A stretch of 64,000 nt of DNA. Origin: Candidatus Fervidifonticultor secundus. GTDB lineage: Bacteria > Sysuimicrobiota > Sysuimicrobiia > Sysuimicrobiales > Humicultoraceae. The notes under the pieces were generated by a model. It had not been told where the DNA came from, ran no database searches, and saw only the letters and a list, made by a program, of their open reading frames with translations. Positions 50,237 through 57,693 of the stretch are shown in pieces. The stretch lies in the NCBI GenBank assembly GCA_031459385.1, contig JAVKIP010000003.1, forward strand, positions 96,001 to 160,000. Reading direction: 5' to 3'. Within the stretch, counting starts at the first letter, position 1; each line of letters opens with the position of its first letter. The translations under genes were made by a program, and so were the position numbers.

Positions 50237-50666
50237 CCGCCCGCGCGCCCGCCGCGCCAGCGGCGGGTTCACCCTGATCGAGGTCGTCGTCGCCATGGCC
50301 GTGCTCTCCCTGGTGGCCACCACCGCGCTGGGCGGGCTGCTGTTCACCATGACCCAGACCCGGCGCGGCTTCGACCGGGCCCAGGCCGCGGCATGGGTCC
50401 AGGCCGAGCTGGACTTCCTGCGCACCATGGGGTACGGGCTGGCGCCGGGGACGCGCACTGTGCCCACTGACGGCTATCTGGCCAACAGCGACCTGCAGGA
50501 ACCGCGGATTCCCGACGGGTTCGACCGGGCCGAGATCGTCGTCGAGGACCTCACCGGCAGCCTGGGCATTCCCCTGAAGTCCATGACGGTGCGCCTGTAC
50601 CAGACGCCGACCTCCCCGCCCTACACGATCCTCGTCACGTATGTGGCGAACTTCGACTACCCGTGA
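50229..50666 (+). CDS. Cassette 4: PilV-like minor pilin
   Basis: G|FTLIE, WVQAELDFLR. Confidence 0.87.
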   Translation: MADRPRARRASGGFTLIEVVVAMAVLSLVATTALGGLLFTMTQTRRGFDRAQAAAWVQAELDFLRTMGYGLAPGTRTVPTDGYLANSDLQEPRIPDGFDRAEIVVEDLTGSLGIPLKSMTVRLYQTPTSPPYTILVTYVANFDYP

Positions 50667-51376
50667 GCGGACCAGCGATGCGCCGGCCTGGGGCAGCACG
50701 GCACGGACAGGCGGGGATCTCCCTCGTCGAGGTCATGGTGGCCATGGTCATCATGACGGTCGTCATCGGGACGATCGCGACGCTGGTGGGCGCGTCGGTC
50801 CGCAGCAAGATGATCGTGGCCAGCCGGTCCTCCGACACGGAGACGGCACGCCAGACGCTGGAGATGATGTCCGAGCGGCTGCGCAACGCGGGGCTGAACA
50901 TCGACCCTGCGGCCCAGCCCGACCGCTGCGACGACATGGTCGTGGCCAAGGACCCGGCCCTGCGGCCGACGGCGACCCAGCTCTACGTGGCCGGCGAGAT
51001 CTTCAACTCGAACACGACCGCGGGCGACCAGGTGATCGTGCTGGGCTACCGGCTCACCGGCGGCCGGATCGTCGAGGACCGCAGCGCGTGCGGCGTATGG
51101 GCTCCGACGACCAGCGATGTCTCGAACCCCGGGATCACGGTGACGAGCCTGCTCTTCCGGTACTTCGGCTCAAGCGGCGGCGAGATCACCGTACCCACAA
51201 CCGACGAGGAGGCGATCCGGAGCATCCGCGTGGTGCAGATCAGCCTCACGGTCCGGGCCGAGGAGGGACGGTCGGGCGCCCAGATCCAGCGCTTCAGCCG
51301 GCAGGTGATGCTGCGCAACCCCCGGCCGGACCGCAGTGGCTGGCTGCCGCCGGCCGGATGGGAGACGAATCCATGA
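50663..51376 (+). CDS. Cassette 4: PilW-like minor pilin
   Basis: G|ISLVE, ARQTLE...LRNAG, MLRN. Confidence 0.85.
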   Translation: MSGPAMRRPGAARHGQAGISLVEVMVAMVIMTVVIGTIATLVGASVRSKMIVASRSSDTETARQTLEMMSERLRNAGLNIDPAAQPDRCDDMVVAKDPALRPTATQLYVAGEIFNSNTTAGDQVIVLGYRLTGGRIVEDRSACGVWAPTTSDVSNPGITVTSLLFRYFGSSGGEITVPTTDEEAIRSIRVVQISLTVRAEEGRSGAQIQRFSRQVMLRNPRPDRSGWLPPAGWETNP

Positions 51377-52782
51377 AAAGAGGCACGATGCGGCCCGCCG
51401 GCGCCGGGCGCCTGCGCCGCACGCCGGCGGGCGGCCAGGCTGGCGCGGCGCTGCTCTCGGTGGTGCTCTTCCTGCTGCTGATCCTGATGGTCACGGTGGG
51501 TGTCATGGCGGTGGTCCGCAGCGACCTGGCGGCCGGCATCCGCCAGCAGCAGGCCGTGCAGGTCTTCAACGTGGCGGAGGCGGGCGTGCACTACGCCATC
51601 GCGCGCCTGCAGACCTCTGGGGCGAACCGGTACGACGGGGCCACGGTCCCCATCACCGACGGCAGCACCACCATCGGGACCGCCACCATCCAGGTCCGCT
51701 GCCTGGACGGCACCCTCCCGAGCGCCAGCGCCTGCAACGGTGCCGAGCCGGCCTACCGGCGGATCGCCTCCACCGGAACGCTCACGGTGGCAGGACCCCG
51801 TCGGGTGGTGACGGCGGTGGTCGAGGGCACGACCTCAGTGACACGGACCTACGCGGTGTGCGCCTACGACGCCCTGACCCTCGACCAGCAGGTGACGGTC
51901 TACGGGTCGGTGGGCACCAACGGCATTATGACGCTCAGCGGGCCCAACAACCTCAACCGTGCGGCGATCTGCGACTCCACCCCGGGCGGGCTGGGCGGCC
52001 GGTGCGGCACGCCCAATCCCGCACCCGCCAGCTCGTTCACGGCCGGCGCCTCCGCCGTGGGGACCATCACGTGCAACGGGGGCGGCTGTGCCAACCAGGT
52101 GGAAGGGCCGACGACACCCAACCAGCCGGCCGGGTCGGTATGCCCGACGGTCACGCTCCCGGGCTGGGGGCCCCCGGGCACCACGCCCCTGTCGGTGCCC
52201 CTCGGCAGCACGGTGTTCGCCAACCCCGCCACCAACTACGGCTCCGTGACGCTGGCGGATACGCCCGGCAACCCCAACCCCTGCCCGTCGGACCCCGCGC
52301 AGCGCGCCACGCTGGTGCTGGACGCGGGCAGCGACCCCACCGCGACGGTCACGTTCCAGATGGCCACGCTGTCGGTCGGCAAGTGCGCCCGCGTCGAGAT
52401 CCGCGGGCAGGGGAAGGTCGAACTGCGGTTGCTCGCGCCGACCACCACGGCGCTGCGCACCGTCCAGCGCTCGGTCCTGGGGACCACCTCGCAGACCGTC
52501 GGCAGCGAGGTGGCCGTGGAGGGCCACCGGTTCACGGTCAAGGTGGTGTCCACCCACTCGACCGCCGCCGTCGACTTCAACCAGTCGGGCTTGATCGCCG
52601 GCACGTTCATCGTGCCCAACGGCGGGTTCCACCTGGACCAGGCACAGATCACCAACGGCGCGATCCTGGCGAGGGCCGTCGACTTCGACCAGGGCACCAC
52701 CTTCACGTGGGACCCGCGGTCGATCATCGGCGACCAGGTCTACGGCGACTTTCGCCGGCTGCGAGCCTGGAAGGACCAGTAG
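51373..52782 (+). CDS. Cassette 4: PilX-N-type large pilin/adhesin
   Basis: G|AALLS, VAEAGVHYA, Cys/Thr-rich, C-terminal AWKD. Confidence 0.82.
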   Translation: MKRGTMRPAGAGRLRRTPAGGQAGAALLSVVLFLLLILMVTVGVMAVVRSDLAAGIRQQQAVQVFNVAEAGVHYAIARLQTSGANRYDGATVPITDGSTTIGTATIQVRCLDGTLPSASACNGAEPAYRRIASTGTLTVAGPRRVVTAVVEGTTSVTRTYAVCAYDALTLDQQVTVYGSVGTNGIMTLSGPNNLNRAAICDSTPGGLGGRCGTPNPAPASSFTAGASAVGTITCNGGGCANQVEGPTTPNQPAGSVCPTVTLPGWGPPGTTPLSVPLGSTVFANPATNYGSVTLADTPGNPNPCPSDPAQRATLVLDAGSDPTATVTFQMATLSVGKCARVEIRGQGKVELRLLAPTTTALRTVQRSVLGTTSQTVGSEVAVEGHRFTVKVVSTHSTAAVDFNQSGLIAGTFIVPNGGFHLDQAQITNGAILARAVDFDQGTTFTWDPRSIIGDQVYGDFRRLRAWKDQ

Positions 52783-52830: not shown

Positions 52831-53442
52831 TCACCCGGCGTTGTGTTTGTCGCCGGTCCCGCGTCCTGTGCCCCGAGGCGAAGGAGAGCGCCGCGCGCTA
52901 TCGACAGCCGTTGTGGCGGGCGGCGATCCGGATCGGATGGGTCGCAGACGGCCCGTCGCGAACCGCTCCCGCGCTTCCGCTACTAGCCGCCAGGCCTCGG
53001 GGGCCGGAGCCCAGCCGTAGATCTCGACCGCCTTCTCCTCCAGGGTCTTGTACACGGTGAAGAAGTGCTCGACCTCTTTCAGGAAGTGGGGCGGCACGCC
53101 GTTCAGGTCGGTGACGTCCGCAAAGCGCGGGTCACCCACGGGCACCGCCAGGATCTTCTGGTCGACGCCCTTCTCGTCCCGCATGTTCAGGACGCCGATG
53201 GGTCGTACCTCGACCAGGCACCCCGGGAACGTTGGCTCGTAGGTGAAAATCAGGACGTCCAGGTGGTCGCCGTCCTCCGCCAGGGTCTCCTCAATGAACC
53301 CGTAGTCGGCCGGGTAGTGCAGCGGCGAGTAGAGCACGCGGTCCAGGCGCAGCCGGCTGGCGGCGGCATCCCATTCGTACTTGTTGCGGCTGCCTCGCGC
53401 GATCTCCACCAACGCCCAGACGGTAGGCCCGGGCCGCGACAT
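52831..53442 (-). CDS. ppa: Family I inorganic pyrophosphatase
   Basis: EIARGSRNKYE, LDRVL, YGFI, DGDHLD, YKTLE. Confidence 0.95.
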   Translation of the reverse strand: MSRPGPTVWALVEIARGSRNKYEWDAAASRLRLDRVLYSPLHYPADYGFIEETLAEDGDHLDVLIFTYEPTFPGCLVEVRPIGVLNMRDEKGVDQKILAVPVGDPRFADVTDLNGVPPHFLKEVEHFFTVYKTLEEKAVEIYGWAPAPEAWRLVAEARERFATGRLRPIRSGSPPATTAVDSARRSPSPRGTGRGTGDKHNAG

Positions 53443-53444
53443 GC

Positions 53445-53855
53445 TCACCCTCTCGCCTCCTCCACCGCGGCCAGGGTCTGGGCCAGCGCGGCCACCCGAC
53501 GCCCCAGCTCGTCGCGGACCGCGCGGTAGCCCTCGAGCCCGCCGCCAGCGGGGTTGGGCAGCGGCCAGTGCTCGCTGCGTACGCCCGGCACCACCGGGCA
53601 GGCCTCCTCCGCGCACAGCCCCACGATCAGGGCCACGTCGGGGCCCAGCGCCGCCTCCAGGGCCACGGGCCGATGCTGGCTGATGTCGAGGCCGACCTCG
53701 CGCATCGCCTCCACCGCTTCCGGACGCACGCGCTCGCCGGGTTCCGTGCCCGCGGAACCCGCCCGCCAGCCAGCCGGCGCCACCGCGTTGAACAGCGCGG
53801 CGGCCATCGGCGAGCGGGCGGTGTTGTGATGTCAGACGAACAGGACGCGCGGCAT
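53445..53855 (-). CDS. arsC: LMW-PTP-family arsenate reductase with in-frame TGA at the catalytic Cys (candidate selenoprotein, otherwise a pseudogene)
   Basis: MPRVLFV[TGA 53832-53834]HHNTARSPMA; SAGTEP; CAEEACP; GGAG SD upstream. Confidence 0.75.
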
Positions 53856-53958
53856 GGCTCCAGGATACCACAGGCCCGCGGCTACGCCCCGCCCGGCCGC
53901 ACGGTGACACGGTGACAGGGACGCCCGGAGGGCCTAGCATCGAGGTGGAGGGGGTGCG

Positions 53959-54720
53959 ATGCTGCTCGCGCTGGACATCGGCAACACCAACGTCAAGCTC
54001 GGGGCATTCCGAGGATCGGAGCTACTGGCGACCTGGCGGGTCGCGACCGATGCGCGGCGGACGCCGGATGAGTACGCGGCGCTGGTGGCAGCGCTGCTGG
54101 GCATGCGTGGGATGACCCCGGCGCGGGTGGAGCGGGTGGTGCTGTGCAGTGTCGTGCCGCCGCTCACCGCAGTGTTTCGCGAGGTTGCGCGCGACGTGTT
54201 TGGCGCGGTCCCGCTGGTCGTCGGCGAGAACGTCGAGACCGGGCTGCGCGTGCTCTACGACCCGCCCTCCGACGTCGGGGCCGACCGGCTGGTGGCGTCG
54301 ACCGCGGCCTACCGGCGCCTGGGCGGACCGGTGATCGTGGTGGAGTTCGGAACCGCCACGGTGTTCGACGCGGTCTCGGATGCCGGCGAGTACCTCGGCG
54401 GCGCCATCCACCCTGGCCTCCAGCTGGCGGCTGAGGCCCTGTTCACGGGCACCTCCCAGCTTCGTCGCATCGAGCTGCGTCGGCCGGCGGCGGCCATCGG
54501 CCGCACGACAATTGCCGCGATCCAGTCCGGGGTGGTGCTGGGACACGTCGGCATGGTCGAGGGCATGGTTGCGCGGTTCCGGCGCGAGGTGGGCGAGCGC
54601 GCCCAGGTGGTGGCCACGGGCGGGCTCGCGCGGCTGATCGCCGCAGAGACGCCCGTCTTCGCTGCCGTCGACGAGGACCTGATCCTGCACGGCCTGCGGC
54701 TCATCGCCGAGGCCACCTGA
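53959..54720 (+). CDS. coaX: Type III pantothenate kinase
   Basis: LDIGNTN, VGADR, FGTAT, YLGGAI, ATGG. Confidence 0.95.
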   Translation: MLLALDIGNTNVKLGAFRGSELLATWRVATDARRTPDEYAALVAALLGMRGMTPARVERVVLCSVVPPLTAVFREVARDVFGAVPLVVGENVETGLRVLYDPPSDVGADRLVASTAAYRRLGGPVIVVEFGTATVFDAVSDAGEYLGGAIHPGLQLAAEALFTGTSQLRRIELRRPAAAIGRTTIAAIQSGVVLGHVGMVEGMVARFRREVGERAQVVATGGLARLIAAETPVFAAVDEDLILHGLRLIAEAT

Positions 54721-54758
54721 CGGCGCCACGGCCGGCGCCGGGACGGGGGACGGCCAGC

Positions 54759-55982
54759 ATGCCCACGGTGCTCCACGGCAAACACATCGTCCTGGGGGTC
54801 ACGGGCAGCATCGCGGCTTTCAAAGCCGCCGACCTGGCGAGCAAGCTCACGCAGCACGGCGCAGCTGTGGACGTAGTGCTCACGCCGGACGCCGCCCGGT
54901 TCGTCACGCCGCTCACGTTCCAGGCCCTGACCCATCGCCCGGTCACCACCGACCTCTTCGACCCGCGGGCCGCGATCGCCATGGATCACGTGGCCCTGGC
55001 GCAGCGGGCCGACGTCATCGTCGTCTGCCCGGCGACGGCGCACACGCTGGCACGGCTGGCGCTGGGCCTGGCCGATGACGCGCTGGCGGCCACGGTGCTG
55101 GCTTCGCGCGCGCCGCTGGTGGTGGTTCCGGCGATGGACGCCCAGATGTTCGACCACCCGGCGGTGCAGGAGCACGTGGCGCGGCTGCACGCGCGGGGCG
55201 CCCGCATCGTCGGCCCCATGGAGGGTCGGCTCGCCTCGGGGCTGGTTGGCCGCGGGCGCATGGCCGAGGTTCCGGAGGTGCTGGGCCACCTGCGCGCGGT
55301 GCTCGGCGCGGCGACCGGGGACCTGCGGGGTACGACGATCGTGGTGACCGCAGGCGGCACGCGAGAGCCGCTGGACCCCGTGCGGGTGCTGACCAACCGG
55401 TCGTCGGGCAAGATGGGCTACGCGGTGGCCGAGGCGGCCAGGGATCGCGGGGCGCGCGCGATCCTGATCACCGCGCCGACGGCGCTCCCCGACCCGCCGG
55501 GCGTGGACGTCCGACGGGTGGAGACCGCCCTGGAGATGCGGGAGGCCGTCCTGGCGGCCTGCCGCGATGCCGACGCCCTGGTCATGACCGCGGCGGTGGC
55601 CGACTACCGCCCCGCGGCACCGGCCCCGCAGAAGGTGAAGAAGGGCGCGCCCACCTGGACCGTCGAGCTCGTGGAGACCCCCGACATCCTCACCGAGGCC
55701 GGCGCGGCCGCGCCGGCGCTGGTCCGGGTGGGCTTTGCCGCCGAGACGACGGACCTGGTGGCGGCCGCCCGCGCCAAACTGGTGCGCAAGGGGCTCGACC
55801 TGATCGCCGCCAACGACGTCTCGGCAGCCGGCAGTGGGTTCGGCGCCGACACGAACCGCCTGGTCCTCATCGATCGCGAGGGGCGGGTCGAGGACCTGCC
55901 CGTGCTCCCCAAGTTCGACGCCGCCTGGATCCTCCTGGACCGCGTCAGGGCCCTGCTGGCGTCTGGGTGGACGCGCCCCTAG
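54759..55982 (+). CDS. coaBC: Phosphopantothenoylcysteine decarboxylase/ligase
   Basis: GVTGSIAAFK, TAGGTRE.LDPVR.LTNRSSGKMG, AAVAD, GFAAET. Confidence 0.96.
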   Translation: MPTVLHGKHIVLGVTGSIAAFKAADLASKLTQHGAAVDVVLTPDAARFVTPLTFQALTHRPVTTDLFDPRAAIAMDHVALAQRADVIVVCPATAHTLARLALGLADDALAATVLASRAPLVVVPAMDAQMFDHPAVQEHVARLHARGARIVGPMEGRLASGLVGRGRMAEVPEVLGHLRAVLGAATGDLRGTTIVVTAGGTREPLDPVRVLTNRSSGKMGYAVAEAARDRGARAILITAPTALPDPPGVDVRRVETALEMREAVLAACRDADALVMTAAVADYRPAAPAPQKVKKGAPTWTVELVETPDILTEAGAAAPALVRVGFAAETTDLVAAARAKLVRKGLDLIAANDVSAAGSGFGADTNRLVLIDREGRVEDLPVLPKFDAAWILLDRVRALLASGWTRP

Positions 55983-56041
55983 CAGGGAACCGCCCGCGGC
56001 GATGGAATGCACACGTAGCCAGACCCAGGAGGACTCCCGGC

Positions 56042-56659
56042 ATGGCGTTGCGCCTGCTCCCCCGCGAGGAGATCTTCTTCGAGCTGTTCAACCAGGCGGC
56101 CGACAACGTGCTCGAAGCCGCCCGCAAGCTGCAGGAACTGCTGGACGACTACAGGGACGTCGAGTCCCGTGCGGCCGCGATCAAGGCCCTGGAGGACCGC
56201 GGCGACGAGCTCACCCACACCATCATCGACCGGCTCAACCGCACCTTCGTGGCGCCGCTGGACCGTGAGGACATCTTCGCGCTGGCCAAGCAGCTGGACG
56301 ACGTCCTGGACTGGATCGAGGCCTCATCGGCGCGCATGGCCATCTACCACATCGCGCGCGCCACGCCCGAGGCCCGCGAGCTGGGCCACATCATCGCCAG
56401 CGCCTGCCAGGCCATCGTCGAGGCGATCCGCGATCTCCGCCGGCTCGACCGGGTCGGCGCCACGCTCCGCGAGATCAACCGGCTCGAGAACCTGGCCGAC
56501 CATGTGCAGCGCGATGCCATCGCCAAACTGTTCGCCGCCGGCGGCGACCCCATCGAGATCATCAAGTGGAAAGAGGTCTACGAAACGCTGGAAGAGGCCA
56601 CCGACCAGGCCGAGCATGTCGCGCACCTGCTCGAGGGCATGCAGGCCAAGCATCTCTAG
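56042..56659 (+). CDS. DUF47 phosphate transport regulator
   Basis: LEDRGD, TFVAPLDREDI, IKWKEVYE; upstream of pit. Confidence 0.92.
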   Translation: MALRLLPREEIFFELFNQAADNVLEAARKLQELLDDYRDVESRAAAIKALEDRGDELTHTIIDRLNRTFVAPLDREDIFALAKQLDDVLDWIEASSARMAIYHIARATPEARELGHIIASACQAIVEAIRDLRRLDRVGATLREINRLENLADHVQRDAIAKLFAAGGDPIEIIKWKEVYETLEEATDQAEHVAHLLEGMQAKHL

Positions 56660-56697
56660 GAGGCGCCGCTGGCTGGCCGGCCGTCCCCCCCTCGCTG

Positions 56698-57693
56698 ATG
56701 CCGACCGTCCTCCCCCTGGGGTTGCTGCCCGTCCTGGTGCTGGTGCTGGCCGCCGAGTTCGTCAACGGGTGGACCGACGCGCCCAACGCCATCGCCACGG
56801 TGGTCTCCACCCGGGTCCTGACGCCGTCAGTGGCGGTCGTCGTCGCCACGGTCCTCAACGTGGTCGGCGTGATGTCGGGCACCGCCGTGGCCGCCACCAT
56901 CGGCACGGGGATCGTGCGGGCCGACGTCATCGACCCGGTCACCATCGCGGCGGCCATGACGGCCATCGTCATCTGGAGCACGCTGGCATGGCTGCGCGGG
57001 CTGCCGACCAGCGAGAGCCACGCGCTGGTCGCCTCGCTGGCCGGCGCCGGCCTGGCCACCGCCGGGCCCGCCGCCCTGCTGTGGGACGGCTGGCGCAAGG
57101 TGCTGCTCGGCCTGGGCTTCTCGACCCTGCTGGGCTTCGCCGGCGGCTTCCTGTTGATGCTCACGATCAGCTGGCTGTTCCGGCGCACGCCGCTGGGAGC
57201 GGTCCGCCGGCTGTTCGGGCGGCTGCAGATCCTGTCGGCAGGCTTCATGGCCTTCAGCCACGGCAGCAACGACGGGCAGAAGTTCATGGGGGTCTTCGTC
57301 CTGACGCTGGTGCTGGGGGGTGTGCTGCCGGAGTTCCGGATCCCCTTCTGGGTGATCGTGCTGTGCGCGCTGACCATGGGGCTGGGCACGGCCCTCGGGG
57401 GCTGGCGCATCGTGCACACCATGGGCATGCGGCTGACCAAGCTGGAGCCCTTCCAGGGCTTCTCCGCCGAAACGGCGGCCGCCACGGCCATCGAGGCGGC
57501 CAGCCGGCTGGGCATTCCGGTCAGCACGACCCACACGATCAACACCGCCATCATGGGGGTCGGGGCGACCCGCCGCCTGTCCGCGGTGCGCTGGGGCGTG
57601 GGTCTGGAGATTGTGACCGCGTGGATCCTCACGTTTCCGGTCTGCGCGCTCGTGGCCGCCGTGGTCGCGCGGTGCCTGCGGGCCGTGTTCTGA
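56698..57693 (+). CDS. pit: Inorganic phosphate transporter
   Basis: NGWTDAPNAIAT, PTSESH, HGSNDGQK, PVSTTH. Confidence 0.94.
   Translation: MPTVLPLGLLPVLVLVLAAEFVNGWTDAPNAIATVVSTRVLTPSVAVVVATVLNVVGVMSGTAVAATIGTGIVRADVIDPVTIAAAMTAIVIWSTLAWLRGLPTSESHALVASLAGAGLATAGPAALLWDGWRKVLLGLGFSTLLGFAGGFLLMLTISWLFRRTPLGAVRRLFGRLQILSAGFMAFSHGSNDGQKFMGVFVLTLVLGGVLPEFRIPFWVIVLCALTMGLGTALGGWRIVHTMGMRLTKLEPFQGFSAETAAATAIEAASRLGIPVSTTHTINTAIMGVGATRRLSAVRWGVGLEIVTAWILTFPVCALVAAVVARCLRAVF

Follow-up and report, generated by a model that had tools for sequence, protein, structure and literature searches.

A candidate selenoprotein gene of the ArsC-like phosphatase fold with a putative distal recoding element in Candidatus Fervidifonticultor secundus

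The window analyzed here, a stretch of 64,000 nucleotides (nt) from Candidatus Fervidifonticultor secundus (GenBank assembly GCA_031459385.1, contig JAVKIP010000003.1, positions 96,001 to 160,000 of the forward strand), carries on its minus strand a gene of the low-molecular-weight protein tyrosine phosphatase (LMW-PTP) fold that resembles the arsenate reductase ArsC and contains an in-frame TGA at the position of the catalytic nucleophile. Judged from its sequence and those of its relatives, this is very probably a real selenoprotein gene, in which the UGA would be read as selenocysteine (Sec). The gene and its main features are the following.

53445..53855, minus strand: full coding sequence of the predicted Sec-containing ArsC-like (LMW-PTP fold) gene, 136 codons plus a terminal TGA (Pfam LMWPc; AlphaFold2 (AF2) model; structural matches to ArsC 1JL3 and 1Y1L)
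53832..53834, minus strand: in-frame UGA, codon 8, predicted to be read as Sec, P-loop nucleophile in U-x5-R-S (same column in every Sec-clade copy inspected)
53858..53861, minus strand: GGAG Shine-Dalgarno (SD)-like motif, 2 nt 5' of the ATG (read from the sequence)
53598..53615, minus strand: codons of Cys81 to Cys86 (CAEEAC), with two putative resolving cysteines

The start ATG occupies positions 53855-53853 and the frame reads MPRVLFV-TGA-HHNTARS, continuing as MPRVLFV-TGA-HHNTARSPMAAALFN.... Apart from one internal TGA (53834-53832), this read-through frame is open until the terminal TGA (53447-53445). The initial annotation of this sequence had described an SD-preceded ATG at 53855 with the reading given above, a sole internal TGA placed at the nucleophile of the C-x5-R P-loop, an otherwise intact frame with the CAEEACP cysteine pair (Cys81 and Cys86) and an abutting ppa gene, and a product shortened to 120 amino acids by open reading frame (ORF) callers. 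We found all of these: the GGAG motif and the ATG are in place, the TGA occupies the same column in the copies of relatives, and ORF calling yields a 120-residue piece that starts at Met17 (database protein P0002).

The start upstream of the TGA is shared with relatives: each of the 25 copies inspected begins with ATG or GTG, 7 codons upstream of the TGA in 24 copies and 10 codons upstream in L064. Among 32 unique orthologue sequences the start codon is ATG in 24 and GTG in 8, and an SD-like tetramer lies at most 20 nt upstream of it in 27 of the 32, a count that stands without a background control. Residues M1, F6, N11, A13, R14 and S15 are invariant in the 22 rows of the protein alignment. 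Two of these rows have Ile in place of Met17, the supposed restart, which is thus not universal. In four Logan contig sets, all from the same hot-spring study, positions 53400-53900 are fully covered and show 0 differences, including at the TGA; these are contigs, not independent of assembly, and three of the four possibly represent the window's own source. Independent support for the TGA comes from other genomes.

We observed that the UGA is conserved. All 20 matches at E ≤ 1e-44 in 41 genomes hold exactly one TGA, and the weaker matches (31–47% identity) are Cys forms. In 94 genomes of the phylum (scans at the level of phylum, class and order yield this identical set), 43 of the 44 matches at E ≤ 1e-34 carry the TGA; the remaining one begins at residue 23 and misses the site. 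The 43 TGA-bearing matches fall in 40 genomes of the families f1, f2 and f4, and direct inspection of the TGA column in relatives' copies found it in 25 out of 25. The single TGA scored for the f4 matches of G069 and G073 was rejected as a Sec codon, being merely the terminal stop. Genomes G019 and G010 are inside the genome counts; G019 (one TGA row) was omitted from the alignments, tree and RNA counts, and the conclusions are independent of both.

Beyond these genomes, the same column shows a pairing of TGA with Cys codons. In a species-representative collection, the nucleophile codon among the best 80 of 158 relatives was TGA in 23, TGC or TGT in 54 and GAC in 1, and 2 had no motif. The 23 TGA forms are the matches of 57–76% identity and bear titles that include Candidatus Fervidifonticultor, Calidihabitans, Geohabitans, 'Armatimonadota bacterium', 'Bacillati bacterium ANGP1' and plain 'bacterium', and the 54 TGC/TGT loci come from other bacterial and archaeal phyla. 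Metagenome loci, counted per motif site among the matches listed (79 loci), gave TGC 52, TGT 20, TGA 1, GGG 1 and no motif 6. Both scans describe listed matches, beyond which further Sec forms may exist. The codons GAC (Asp) in L118 (position 2522) and GGG (Gly) in L250 are distant natural variants with neither Cys nor Sec. A 2024 paper assigns Fervidifonticultor, Calidihabitans and Geohabitans to metagenome-assembled genomes of Sysuimicrobiota (CSP1-3); a term search of its main text returned no word beginning with 'selen'. The TGA is more than a product of chance.

The genome to which the window belongs (G000; 59 contigs, 97.6% complete, 5.5% contamination) encodes a complete Sec machinery. 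The genes selA (548.9 bits) and selB (367.6 bits) are adjacent on contig C12, the tRNA-Sec gene (64.5 bits) lies 2 kb downstream (G000:C12:151486-157010), and selD (388.2 bits; G000:C1:104038-104961) contains an in-frame TGA of its own, within the classic CAG-U-ASK context. All four exceed their curated cut-offs. All 40 selD matches, found in 38 of the 41 genomes sampled from the phylum, have the TGA, which indicates that the Sec trait is phylum-wide. Across 28 sequences the Sec insertion sequence (SECIS) of selD is canonical, with a 7-bp stem at +28..+46 (offsets count from the UGA) and a loop 32 nt from the UGA that reads CGUGC, CGUGU, GGUCC or GGUUC; sequence L175 departs from the stem. FdhA was sought as a second SECIS comparator, and the molybdopterin-enzyme matches of G000 show no in-frame TGA. 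The initial annotation had tied its proposal to the presence of selA, selB, selC and selD and to the codon that close relatives carry at the site. All four genes are there, and relatives keep the TGA; TGC or TGT is confined to more remote homologues and to P0019, a nested Cys form. Its core claim, a Sec-encoding ArsC-family gene cut short by ORF callers, is hence supported.

A tree of 159 rows, built by a quick search on 134 columns that leaves many forks unresolved, places all 33 non-redundant Sec rows under one ancestor node that also holds P0019, a full-length Cys form nested inside the Sec clade (SH-aLRT branch support 94; 14-row clade 95). Two changes of the Sec label are needed, which suggests one recoding from Cys to Sec and one reversal. 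We sought the DNA of P0019 in the metagenome collection in order to test whether P1 and P2, the RNA helices described below, decay in this orthologue; the best match reached only 59%. An apparent second paralogue on G000:C33:1-3275 (L023) was set aside, since it matches G043:C35 (L061), a contig from a different genus, at 100% identity over 3,275 nt. This contig carries its own Sec-ArsC-like gene followed by ppa and, because of the contamination of G000, is probably mis-binned and not a second copy. At L138:2501-2623 we noted a Sec-form copy in one genome whose match, which includes the TGA, is confined to residues 1-41; the sequence beyond is unrelated and contains stops. Either a broken gene copy or an artefact of assembly could account for this.

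The read-through product falls in Pfam LMWPc (3.8e-20), and its AF2 model has a mean predicted local distance difference score (pLDDT) of 94.9 and a predicted template modeling score (pTM) of 0.90. Foldseek returned ArsC 1JL3 and 1Y1L as top matches (template modeling (TM) score 0.82), with pI258 ArsC also among the best. In a profile search of PDB sequences, the 15 best matches were all LMW-PTP-fold arsenate reductases, 1Y1L first (6.3e-29) and then the pI258 entries; the phosphatases YwlE and Wzb scored between 1e-13 and 1e-6. The P-loop reads U-H-H-N-T-A-R-S, i.e., the C-x5-R-[ST] motif of the fold with Sec predicted as nucleophile. In the alignment with pI258 ArsC, whose numbering we take to be Cys10, Cys82, Cys89 and Asp105 (general acid), the nucleophile, both downstream cysteines and the Asp/Asn site all line up. 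Cys81 and Cys86, in the spacing C-x4-C, are invariant in 22 of 22 rows.

If the UGA is decoded as Sec, the mRNA should carry a SECIS. We compared 33 non-redundant Sec-form sequences that are gapless from the start codon to +110. When codon entropy was computed for 53 four- and sixfold degenerate columns, the seven lowest values belonged to codons 34, 35, 37, 14, 7, 13 and 27. The synonymous choice is invariant in 33 of 33 sequences for Ser34 (TCC), Ala35 (GCG) and Thr37 (ACG), codon 14 is CGC in 32 of 33, and no column beyond codon 37 has an entropy under 0.75 bits. The RNA elements of this region are the following.

53814..53819, minus strand: P1 5' arm, GCCCGC, offsets +15..+20, codons Ala13-Arg14 with frozen synonymous sites (helix pairing and covariation)
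53761..53766, minus strand: P1 3' arm, GCGGGC, offsets +68..+73 (helix pairing)
53779..53804, minus strand: variable inner hairpin at the Phe-Asn codons, offsets +30..+55, window loop CUGUUCAA (register differs between orthologues)
53741..53758, minus strand: P2 hairpin, offsets +76..+93, 6-bp stem, loop CGGGCA (53747-53752), candidate SelB-binding part of the SECIS (pairing, covariation and minimum free energy (MFE))

Helix P1 (15-20 with 68-73) is 90.9% paired, and its pair 17:71 is C-G in 27 sequences and switched to G-C in 5. It starts 12 nt after the UGA and closes a 59-nt domain, and P2 begins 2 nt after it. In P2 (76-81 with 88-93, loop CGGGNA) 98% of the cells are paired. Its pair 77:92, which couples the third base of codon 33 with the Glu/Asp choice at codon 38, is CG in 21 sequences, GC in 8, AU in 2, UA in 1 and UG in 1, and unpaired in 0. 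Slid controls for P1 and P2 reached at most 45% pairing. The window RNA from 0 to +100 has an MFE of -60 kcal/mol (z = -3.33; 0 of 200 shuffles equally stable) and folds into two parts, a domain closed at +13..+71 and, behind it, a 9-bp hairpin at +73..+96; the closing helix is a few nt off the register of the comparative P1. Related sequences can beat shuffles without any structure, so the slid controls and the Cys paralogues are the more telling comparisons.

In 15 same-phylum Cys-paralogue rows (L051 was anchored on a different SAG), the residues SAGT stand at the same offset and their codons are mixed (Ser AGC 6, TCG 4, TCC 3, TCT 1 and AGT 1; Ala GCC 8, GCG 5 and GCA 2). Out of 5 P2-equivalent pairs these rows form 4, 2, 2, 2, 2, 2, 5, 1, 2, 2, 2, 2, 3, 1 and 2, that is, at most 3 in 13 rows, and in 48 Cys forms from other phyla the mode is 2–3 of 5. 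We thus observed an RNA covariation that goes with the Sec forms: on the evidence of these alignments, P2 is specific to the TGA forms and the Cys paralogues mostly lack it. The bacterial SECIS model given in a 2026 review has a loop of 3-9 nt, a stem of 4-16 bp, an MFE of at most -7.5, a G in the first two loop positions that is usually followed by G or U, and 16-37 nt from the UGA to the loop. For E. coli, a 2021 review gives a 17-nt upper stem-loop 11 nt from the UGA. P2 alone folds with -7.0 to -15.9 kcal/mol (median -10.5), and the energy rule holds in 30 of 32 sequences. A P2 covariance model run over the genome scored 37.5 bits at the gene and 36.5 bits at the duplicate contig, with 21.6 bits as next best.

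Other structures fared less well. A GCC-GAU-GGC hairpin that the initial annotation had taken for the SECIS is present in the window; across 33 non-redundant orthologues, however, just 53.5% of its cells are paired, without covariation, and its third pair forms in 5 of the 33. The initial annotation had also held that a change to RSPM makes the stem of the signal; Pro16 occurs in only 5 of 33 sequences and thus cannot be the maker of the recoding signal. The inner hairpin is at a distance that the SECIS model allows, but in the window its loop departs from the G rule, and its register varies among orthologues. When its register was fixed (+29..+58), it did no better than slid controls, and an alternative P1 partner at +60..+65 was weaker, with 72% pairing. 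A scan for further selenoproteins based on GC content at third codon positions was abandoned as too noisy, with 766 candidates under a relaxed filter.

Neighboring genes were identified from conservation-ranked ORFs and Pfam (70 proteins, then 3 more). In the window they are the following.

52831..53448, minus strand: ppa, family I inorganic pyrophosphatase (Pfam Pyrophosphatase, 8.4e-54), its start overlapping the stop of the Sec gene
53959-55982, plus strand: type III pantothenate kinase (coaX) and coaBC, divergent, between the Sec gene and the DUF47-Pit pair (Pfam)
55967..57693, plus strand: DUF47 (PhoU_div) and PHO4/Pit phosphate transporter pair, upstream and divergent, 2 kb away (Pfam)

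We observed a neighborhood that is related to phosphate. The ppa start is either the GTG at 53448-53446, which overlaps the stop of the Sec gene, or the ATG at 53442, and the two genes are probably co-transcribed; ppa is directly downstream of the Sec gene in the window and in L024, L026, L065 and L067. In other genera the PHO4/Pit and DUF47 pair directly adjoins the Sec gene; it is divergent from it in L026, L038 and L083, and PHO4 stands alone upstream in L067, L082 and L072 (in the latter as a C-terminal fragment). The pstB-phoU genes lie directly upstream on the same strand in L065 and are convergent in L077 and L079, and phoU is found upstream in L028 and alone and convergent in L068. An ars operon context (arsR, arsB/acr3) was not found, the neighbors being ppa, pst/phoU and pit. 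The only arsenic-flavored neighborhood is that of L075:2909-4226 (minus strand), where a Thioredoxin_3 protein and an ArsP_1 permease follow the Sec gene on the opposite strand. Downstream of ppa in the window, an ORF on the plus strand (50641-52782, 713 amino acids) gave no match to Pfam at E ≤ 1e-5. Its product begins with an N-terminal third of low complexity, rich in Arg, Gly and Asp, after which comes a hydrophobic segment.

We also analyzed how the gene is represented in protein databases and selenoprotein catalogues. A search of 5.8 billion proteins returned 1,030 homologues, and 118 of the best 120 cover at most 88% of the query; names among these 120 are 'arsenate reductase ArsC', 'arsenate reductase' and 'protein-tyrosine-phosphatase'. 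Of 13 database proteins inspected, 11 start past the TGA position, P0019 is the full-length Cys form and P0100 has an odd N-terminus. P0100 (141 amino acids, 60% identical to the query) begins MPTGLFGLVGNRARS and seems to span the TGA region with different residues; this N-terminus is unlike the DNA-derived translations of the closest loci, L059 and L087. Among the NCBIfam matches of the gene (E ≤ 0.001) there is neither TIGR00014 nor NF041106. The family pfam03960 is presumably of the thioredoxin-like ArsC/Spx fold.

Table 1 of the 2026 review counts 119 selenoprotein families or subfamilies. It lists 'Arsenate reductase' under TIGR00014 (UxxS) and 'Arsenate reductase-like' under NF041106 (UxxC), and, in the parts and text searches covered here, has no LMW-PTP-fold family; nor do the Haft and Tolstoy 2025 families, as compiled in that table, include an LMW-PTP entry. 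In the available parts of the Sargasso (COG1393) and Global Ocean Sampling (GOS; pfam03960, cd03032) papers, the catalogued Sec arsenate reductases are outside PF01451, and the available text of the BSepDB paper has no occurrence of 'phosphatase'. The tables of a 2006 survey name 'ArsC-like' and 'distant ArsC homolog' selenoproteins with no fold identifier. Within the portions of the selenocysteine and ArsC literature consulted, no LMW-PTP-fold Sec form is reported. The gene almost certainly encodes a Sec-containing enzyme of the arsenate-reductase (tyrosine-phosphatase) fold. The catalogues consulted lack this selenoprotein type, and annotation routinely presents it as a truncated protein.

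Arsenate enters cells through the Pit and Pst phosphate transporters, which makes a phosphate-linked arsenate reductase plausible. With moderate confidence we favor the explanation that the gene encodes a Sec-decoded selenoenzyme of the LMW-PTP fold, with P1 and P2 as its SECIS and a role in phosphate-linked arsenate handling. Translation would begin at the ATG at 53855, and the UGA at codon 8 would be decoded as Sec by the SelA, SelB, tRNA-Sec and SelD of the genome. The product would be an enzyme of 136 residues that adopts the LMW-PTP fold and has Sec in place of the usual P-loop nucleophile. In analogy to the thioredoxin-coupled ArsC enzymes, the selenolate would attack a tetrahedral oxyanion held in the P-loop, most likely arsenate; Cys81 would then attack the selenium to form a Se-S bond with release of the reduced product, and Cys86 would resolve this bond into a Cys81-Cys86 disulfide that thioredoxin could reduce. 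The alignment of the nucleophile and both cysteines with those of pI258 ArsC makes this three-step chalcogen relay plausible. At the RNA level, P1 would close the intervening 59 nt into a compact domain and P2, directly after it, would present the SelB-binding loop. The closing of +15..+73 by P1 may be the reason why a distance of 79 nt between UGA and P2 is tolerated. Because ppa and phosphate-uptake genes are nearby, we read the role as the handling of arsenate that enters via phosphate transporters, and not as that of a classical ars operon. That P1 and P2 form a functional SECIS is, from the comparative evidence, rather probable; that arsenate is the physiological substrate is, by analogy, an evenly balanced proposition.

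Several observations weigh against parts of this explanation. At the RNA level, 2 of the 15 Cys-paralogue rows still make 4-5 of the 5 P2-equivalent pairs, 18 of the 32 MFE structures obtained by folding orthologues singly retain 5 or more of the 6 P2 pairs and 23 of the 32 close the first domain, and the P2 loop begins 79 nt after the UGA, outside the published 16-37 nt. The covariance-model scan found no second credible P2 behind an in-frame TGA in the genome, a result that is uninformative either way. At the protein level, the NCBIfam ArsC models give 75.5 and 68.9 bits, under their cut-offs of 215 and 174.3, and the window copy has Asn101 at the general-acid Asp position (over 22 rows, N 9, D 11, S 1 and G 1). 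No ACR3, ArsB or glutaredoxin-type (pfam03960) ArsC was found in the 97.6% complete G000. An ACR3/ArsB match is present in 5 of 19 genomes with the full Sec form (G002, weak; G007, G009, G015 and G016), and in G009 (G009:C90:9875-11364) and G006 (G006:C241:5180-6147) ACR3 adjoins an LMW-PTP ArsC paralogue of the Cys type that shares 43-45% identity with the Sec form. The phylum seems to keep the classical Cys ars module apart from the Sec form, and the absence of ACR3/ArsB from G000, their scarcity among carriers and the place of ACR3 beside the Cys paralogue argue that the Sec form is not the ars-operon reductase of the phylum. Of the name 'LMW-PTP arsenate reductase' that the initial annotation had given to the gene, the fold and family resemblance thus stands, and simple membership in ArsC is disfavored by the scores below cut-off, the Asn at the Asp site and the phosphate context.

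Gene callers and public databases, with the short coverage of 118 of their best 120 matches, treat the TGA as a true stop, which would leave a pseudogene or only the 120-residue Met17 protein without nucleophile. We regard this as very improbable, as 40 genomes from three families retain both the TGA and the conserved codons that precede it, N11, A13, R14 and S15 between TGA and Met17 are invariant and Met17 itself is not, the upstream start is conserved with an SD-like motif in 27 of 32 sequences, and the RNA constraint is centered on this region. UGA is the leakiest of the stop codons, and it might be decoded here as something other than Sec through a change of code, a suppressor tRNA or near-cognate Trp/Cys readthrough, or it might stem from a sequencing or assembly error. 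Either would be hard to credit: the gene itself ends in TGA, as does the G069/G073 paralogue, so that TGA is an ordinary stop here without a code change, the Sec machinery is complete, the four contig sets show no differences, and the TGA recurs in independent assemblies of 39 other genomes. It is a more serious, if still unlikely, alternative that the functional SECIS is the proximal Phe-Asn hairpin (+30..+55, loop 36 nt after the UGA) and that P1 and P2 are kept for mRNA stability, ribosome pausing or competition with release factor 2 (RF2). This hairpin is the sole structure at the canonical 16-37 nt, has a strong 9-bp stem in the window and pairs in 72% of cells across orthologues. Its register, however, shifts between orthologues, with covariation no better than that of a control slid by +1; a CUC or CUA codon for Leu21 (9 of 30 Leu codons) leaves its loop without a G, and in the window the G is third and not first or second. 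Synonymous sites are unfrozen inside it and frozen in P1 and P2, and the large absence of P2 from Cys paralogues also argues for P2.

The substrate is where an alternative has most to offer, although we still consider it rather unlikely. The protein could be a genuine selenoenzyme with a substrate other than arsenate that serves phosphate metabolism or homeostasis, e.g., a redox-gated phosphatase acting via a selenophosphate intermediate, or a reductase of another oxyanion. This would explain the company of ppa, pst/phoU and pit, in a neighborhood that is phosphate-related in most loci and ars-related in one (L075, with ArsP and a thioredoxin-fold protein); it would also fit the lack of ACR3/ArsB in G000 and in 14 of 19 carriers of the Sec form, the pairing of ACR3 with the Cys paralogue, the ArsC scores below cut-off and the general-acid Asp that is not conserved. 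Against it, every one of the nearest sequences and structures is an arsenate reductase, with far lower scores for true phosphatases, and both resolving cysteines of the ArsC cascade are invariant, for which a pure phosphatase has no need. The known selenoenzymes use Sec for redox chemistry, and phosphate transporters admit arsenate, so that the phosphate linkage also fits arsenate handling.

If the favored explanation of a Sec-decoded arsenate-handling enzyme holds, the gene would found a new selenoprotein family, on a phosphatase-type P-loop fold and chemistry without catalogued Sec, in a phylum that is widespread and uncultivated. Its recognition would also put right a systematic error of annotation, by which nearly all of the 120 closest database homologues are N-terminally short and lack the catalytic residue. 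The RNA evidence offers a testable case of a bacterial SECIS that is not bound to 37 nt or less from the UGA, and gene finders that assume such spacing could miss genes of this kind. The recurring link with pst, pit and ppa suggests a direct coupling of phosphate uptake with the handling of arsenate or another oxyanion. Tentatively, we propose a new SECIS architecture, in which P2 lies 79 nt downstream and would be brought to the mRNA entrance of the ribosome by the inserted P1 domain, and with it a first natural selenoenzyme on a phosphatase-type C-x5-R P-loop, wired to phosphate acquisition.

Compared with known systems, P2 conforms to the published bacterial SECIS in its 6-bp stem, its 6-nt loop and the G at loop position 2 that is followed by G. 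It shares the G-[G/U] loop rule with the selD SECIS of the phylum and differs in distance (79 nt for P2, 32 nt for selD), and the 12 nt between the UGA and the start of P1 nearly equal the 11 nt of the E. coli SECIS. The catalogued Sec arsenate reductases TIGR00014/pfam03960 (UxxS) and NF041106/cd03032 (UxxC) have accessions other than PF01451, and the predicted motif here is U-x5-R, with U-H-H-N. True LMW phosphatases (the arginine phosphatase YwlE, Wzb and bovine LMW-PTP) share the superfamily and the P-loop (Pfam LMWPc) but lack the two resolving cysteines, and match at E values of 1e-13 to 1e-6 as against 1e-29. Thioredoxin-coupled ArsC of the LMW-PTP type (TIGR02691/PRK13530; S. aureus pI258, 1LJL/1JF8; B. 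subtilis 1JL3) has the same fold (TM score 0.82-0.83; approximately 32-35% identity) and the same x-x5-R-S P-loop with Asn, and its nucleophile and two downstream cysteines align with those of the gene; its nucleophile is Cys where the gene has a predicted Sec, its cysteines are spaced C-x6-C instead of C-x4-C, and the gene has an Asn at the general-acid site and lies outside an ars operon. The ArsC-like protein of Archaeoglobus fulgidus (1Y1L, from structural genomics; root-mean-square deviation 1.7 Å, 43% identity), whose function is uncharacterised as far as the entry title shows, shares with the predicted enzyme the C-x4-C spacing (CEESSC) and the Asn-Pro (ENP) in place of Asp-Pro, and has Cys as its nucleophile.

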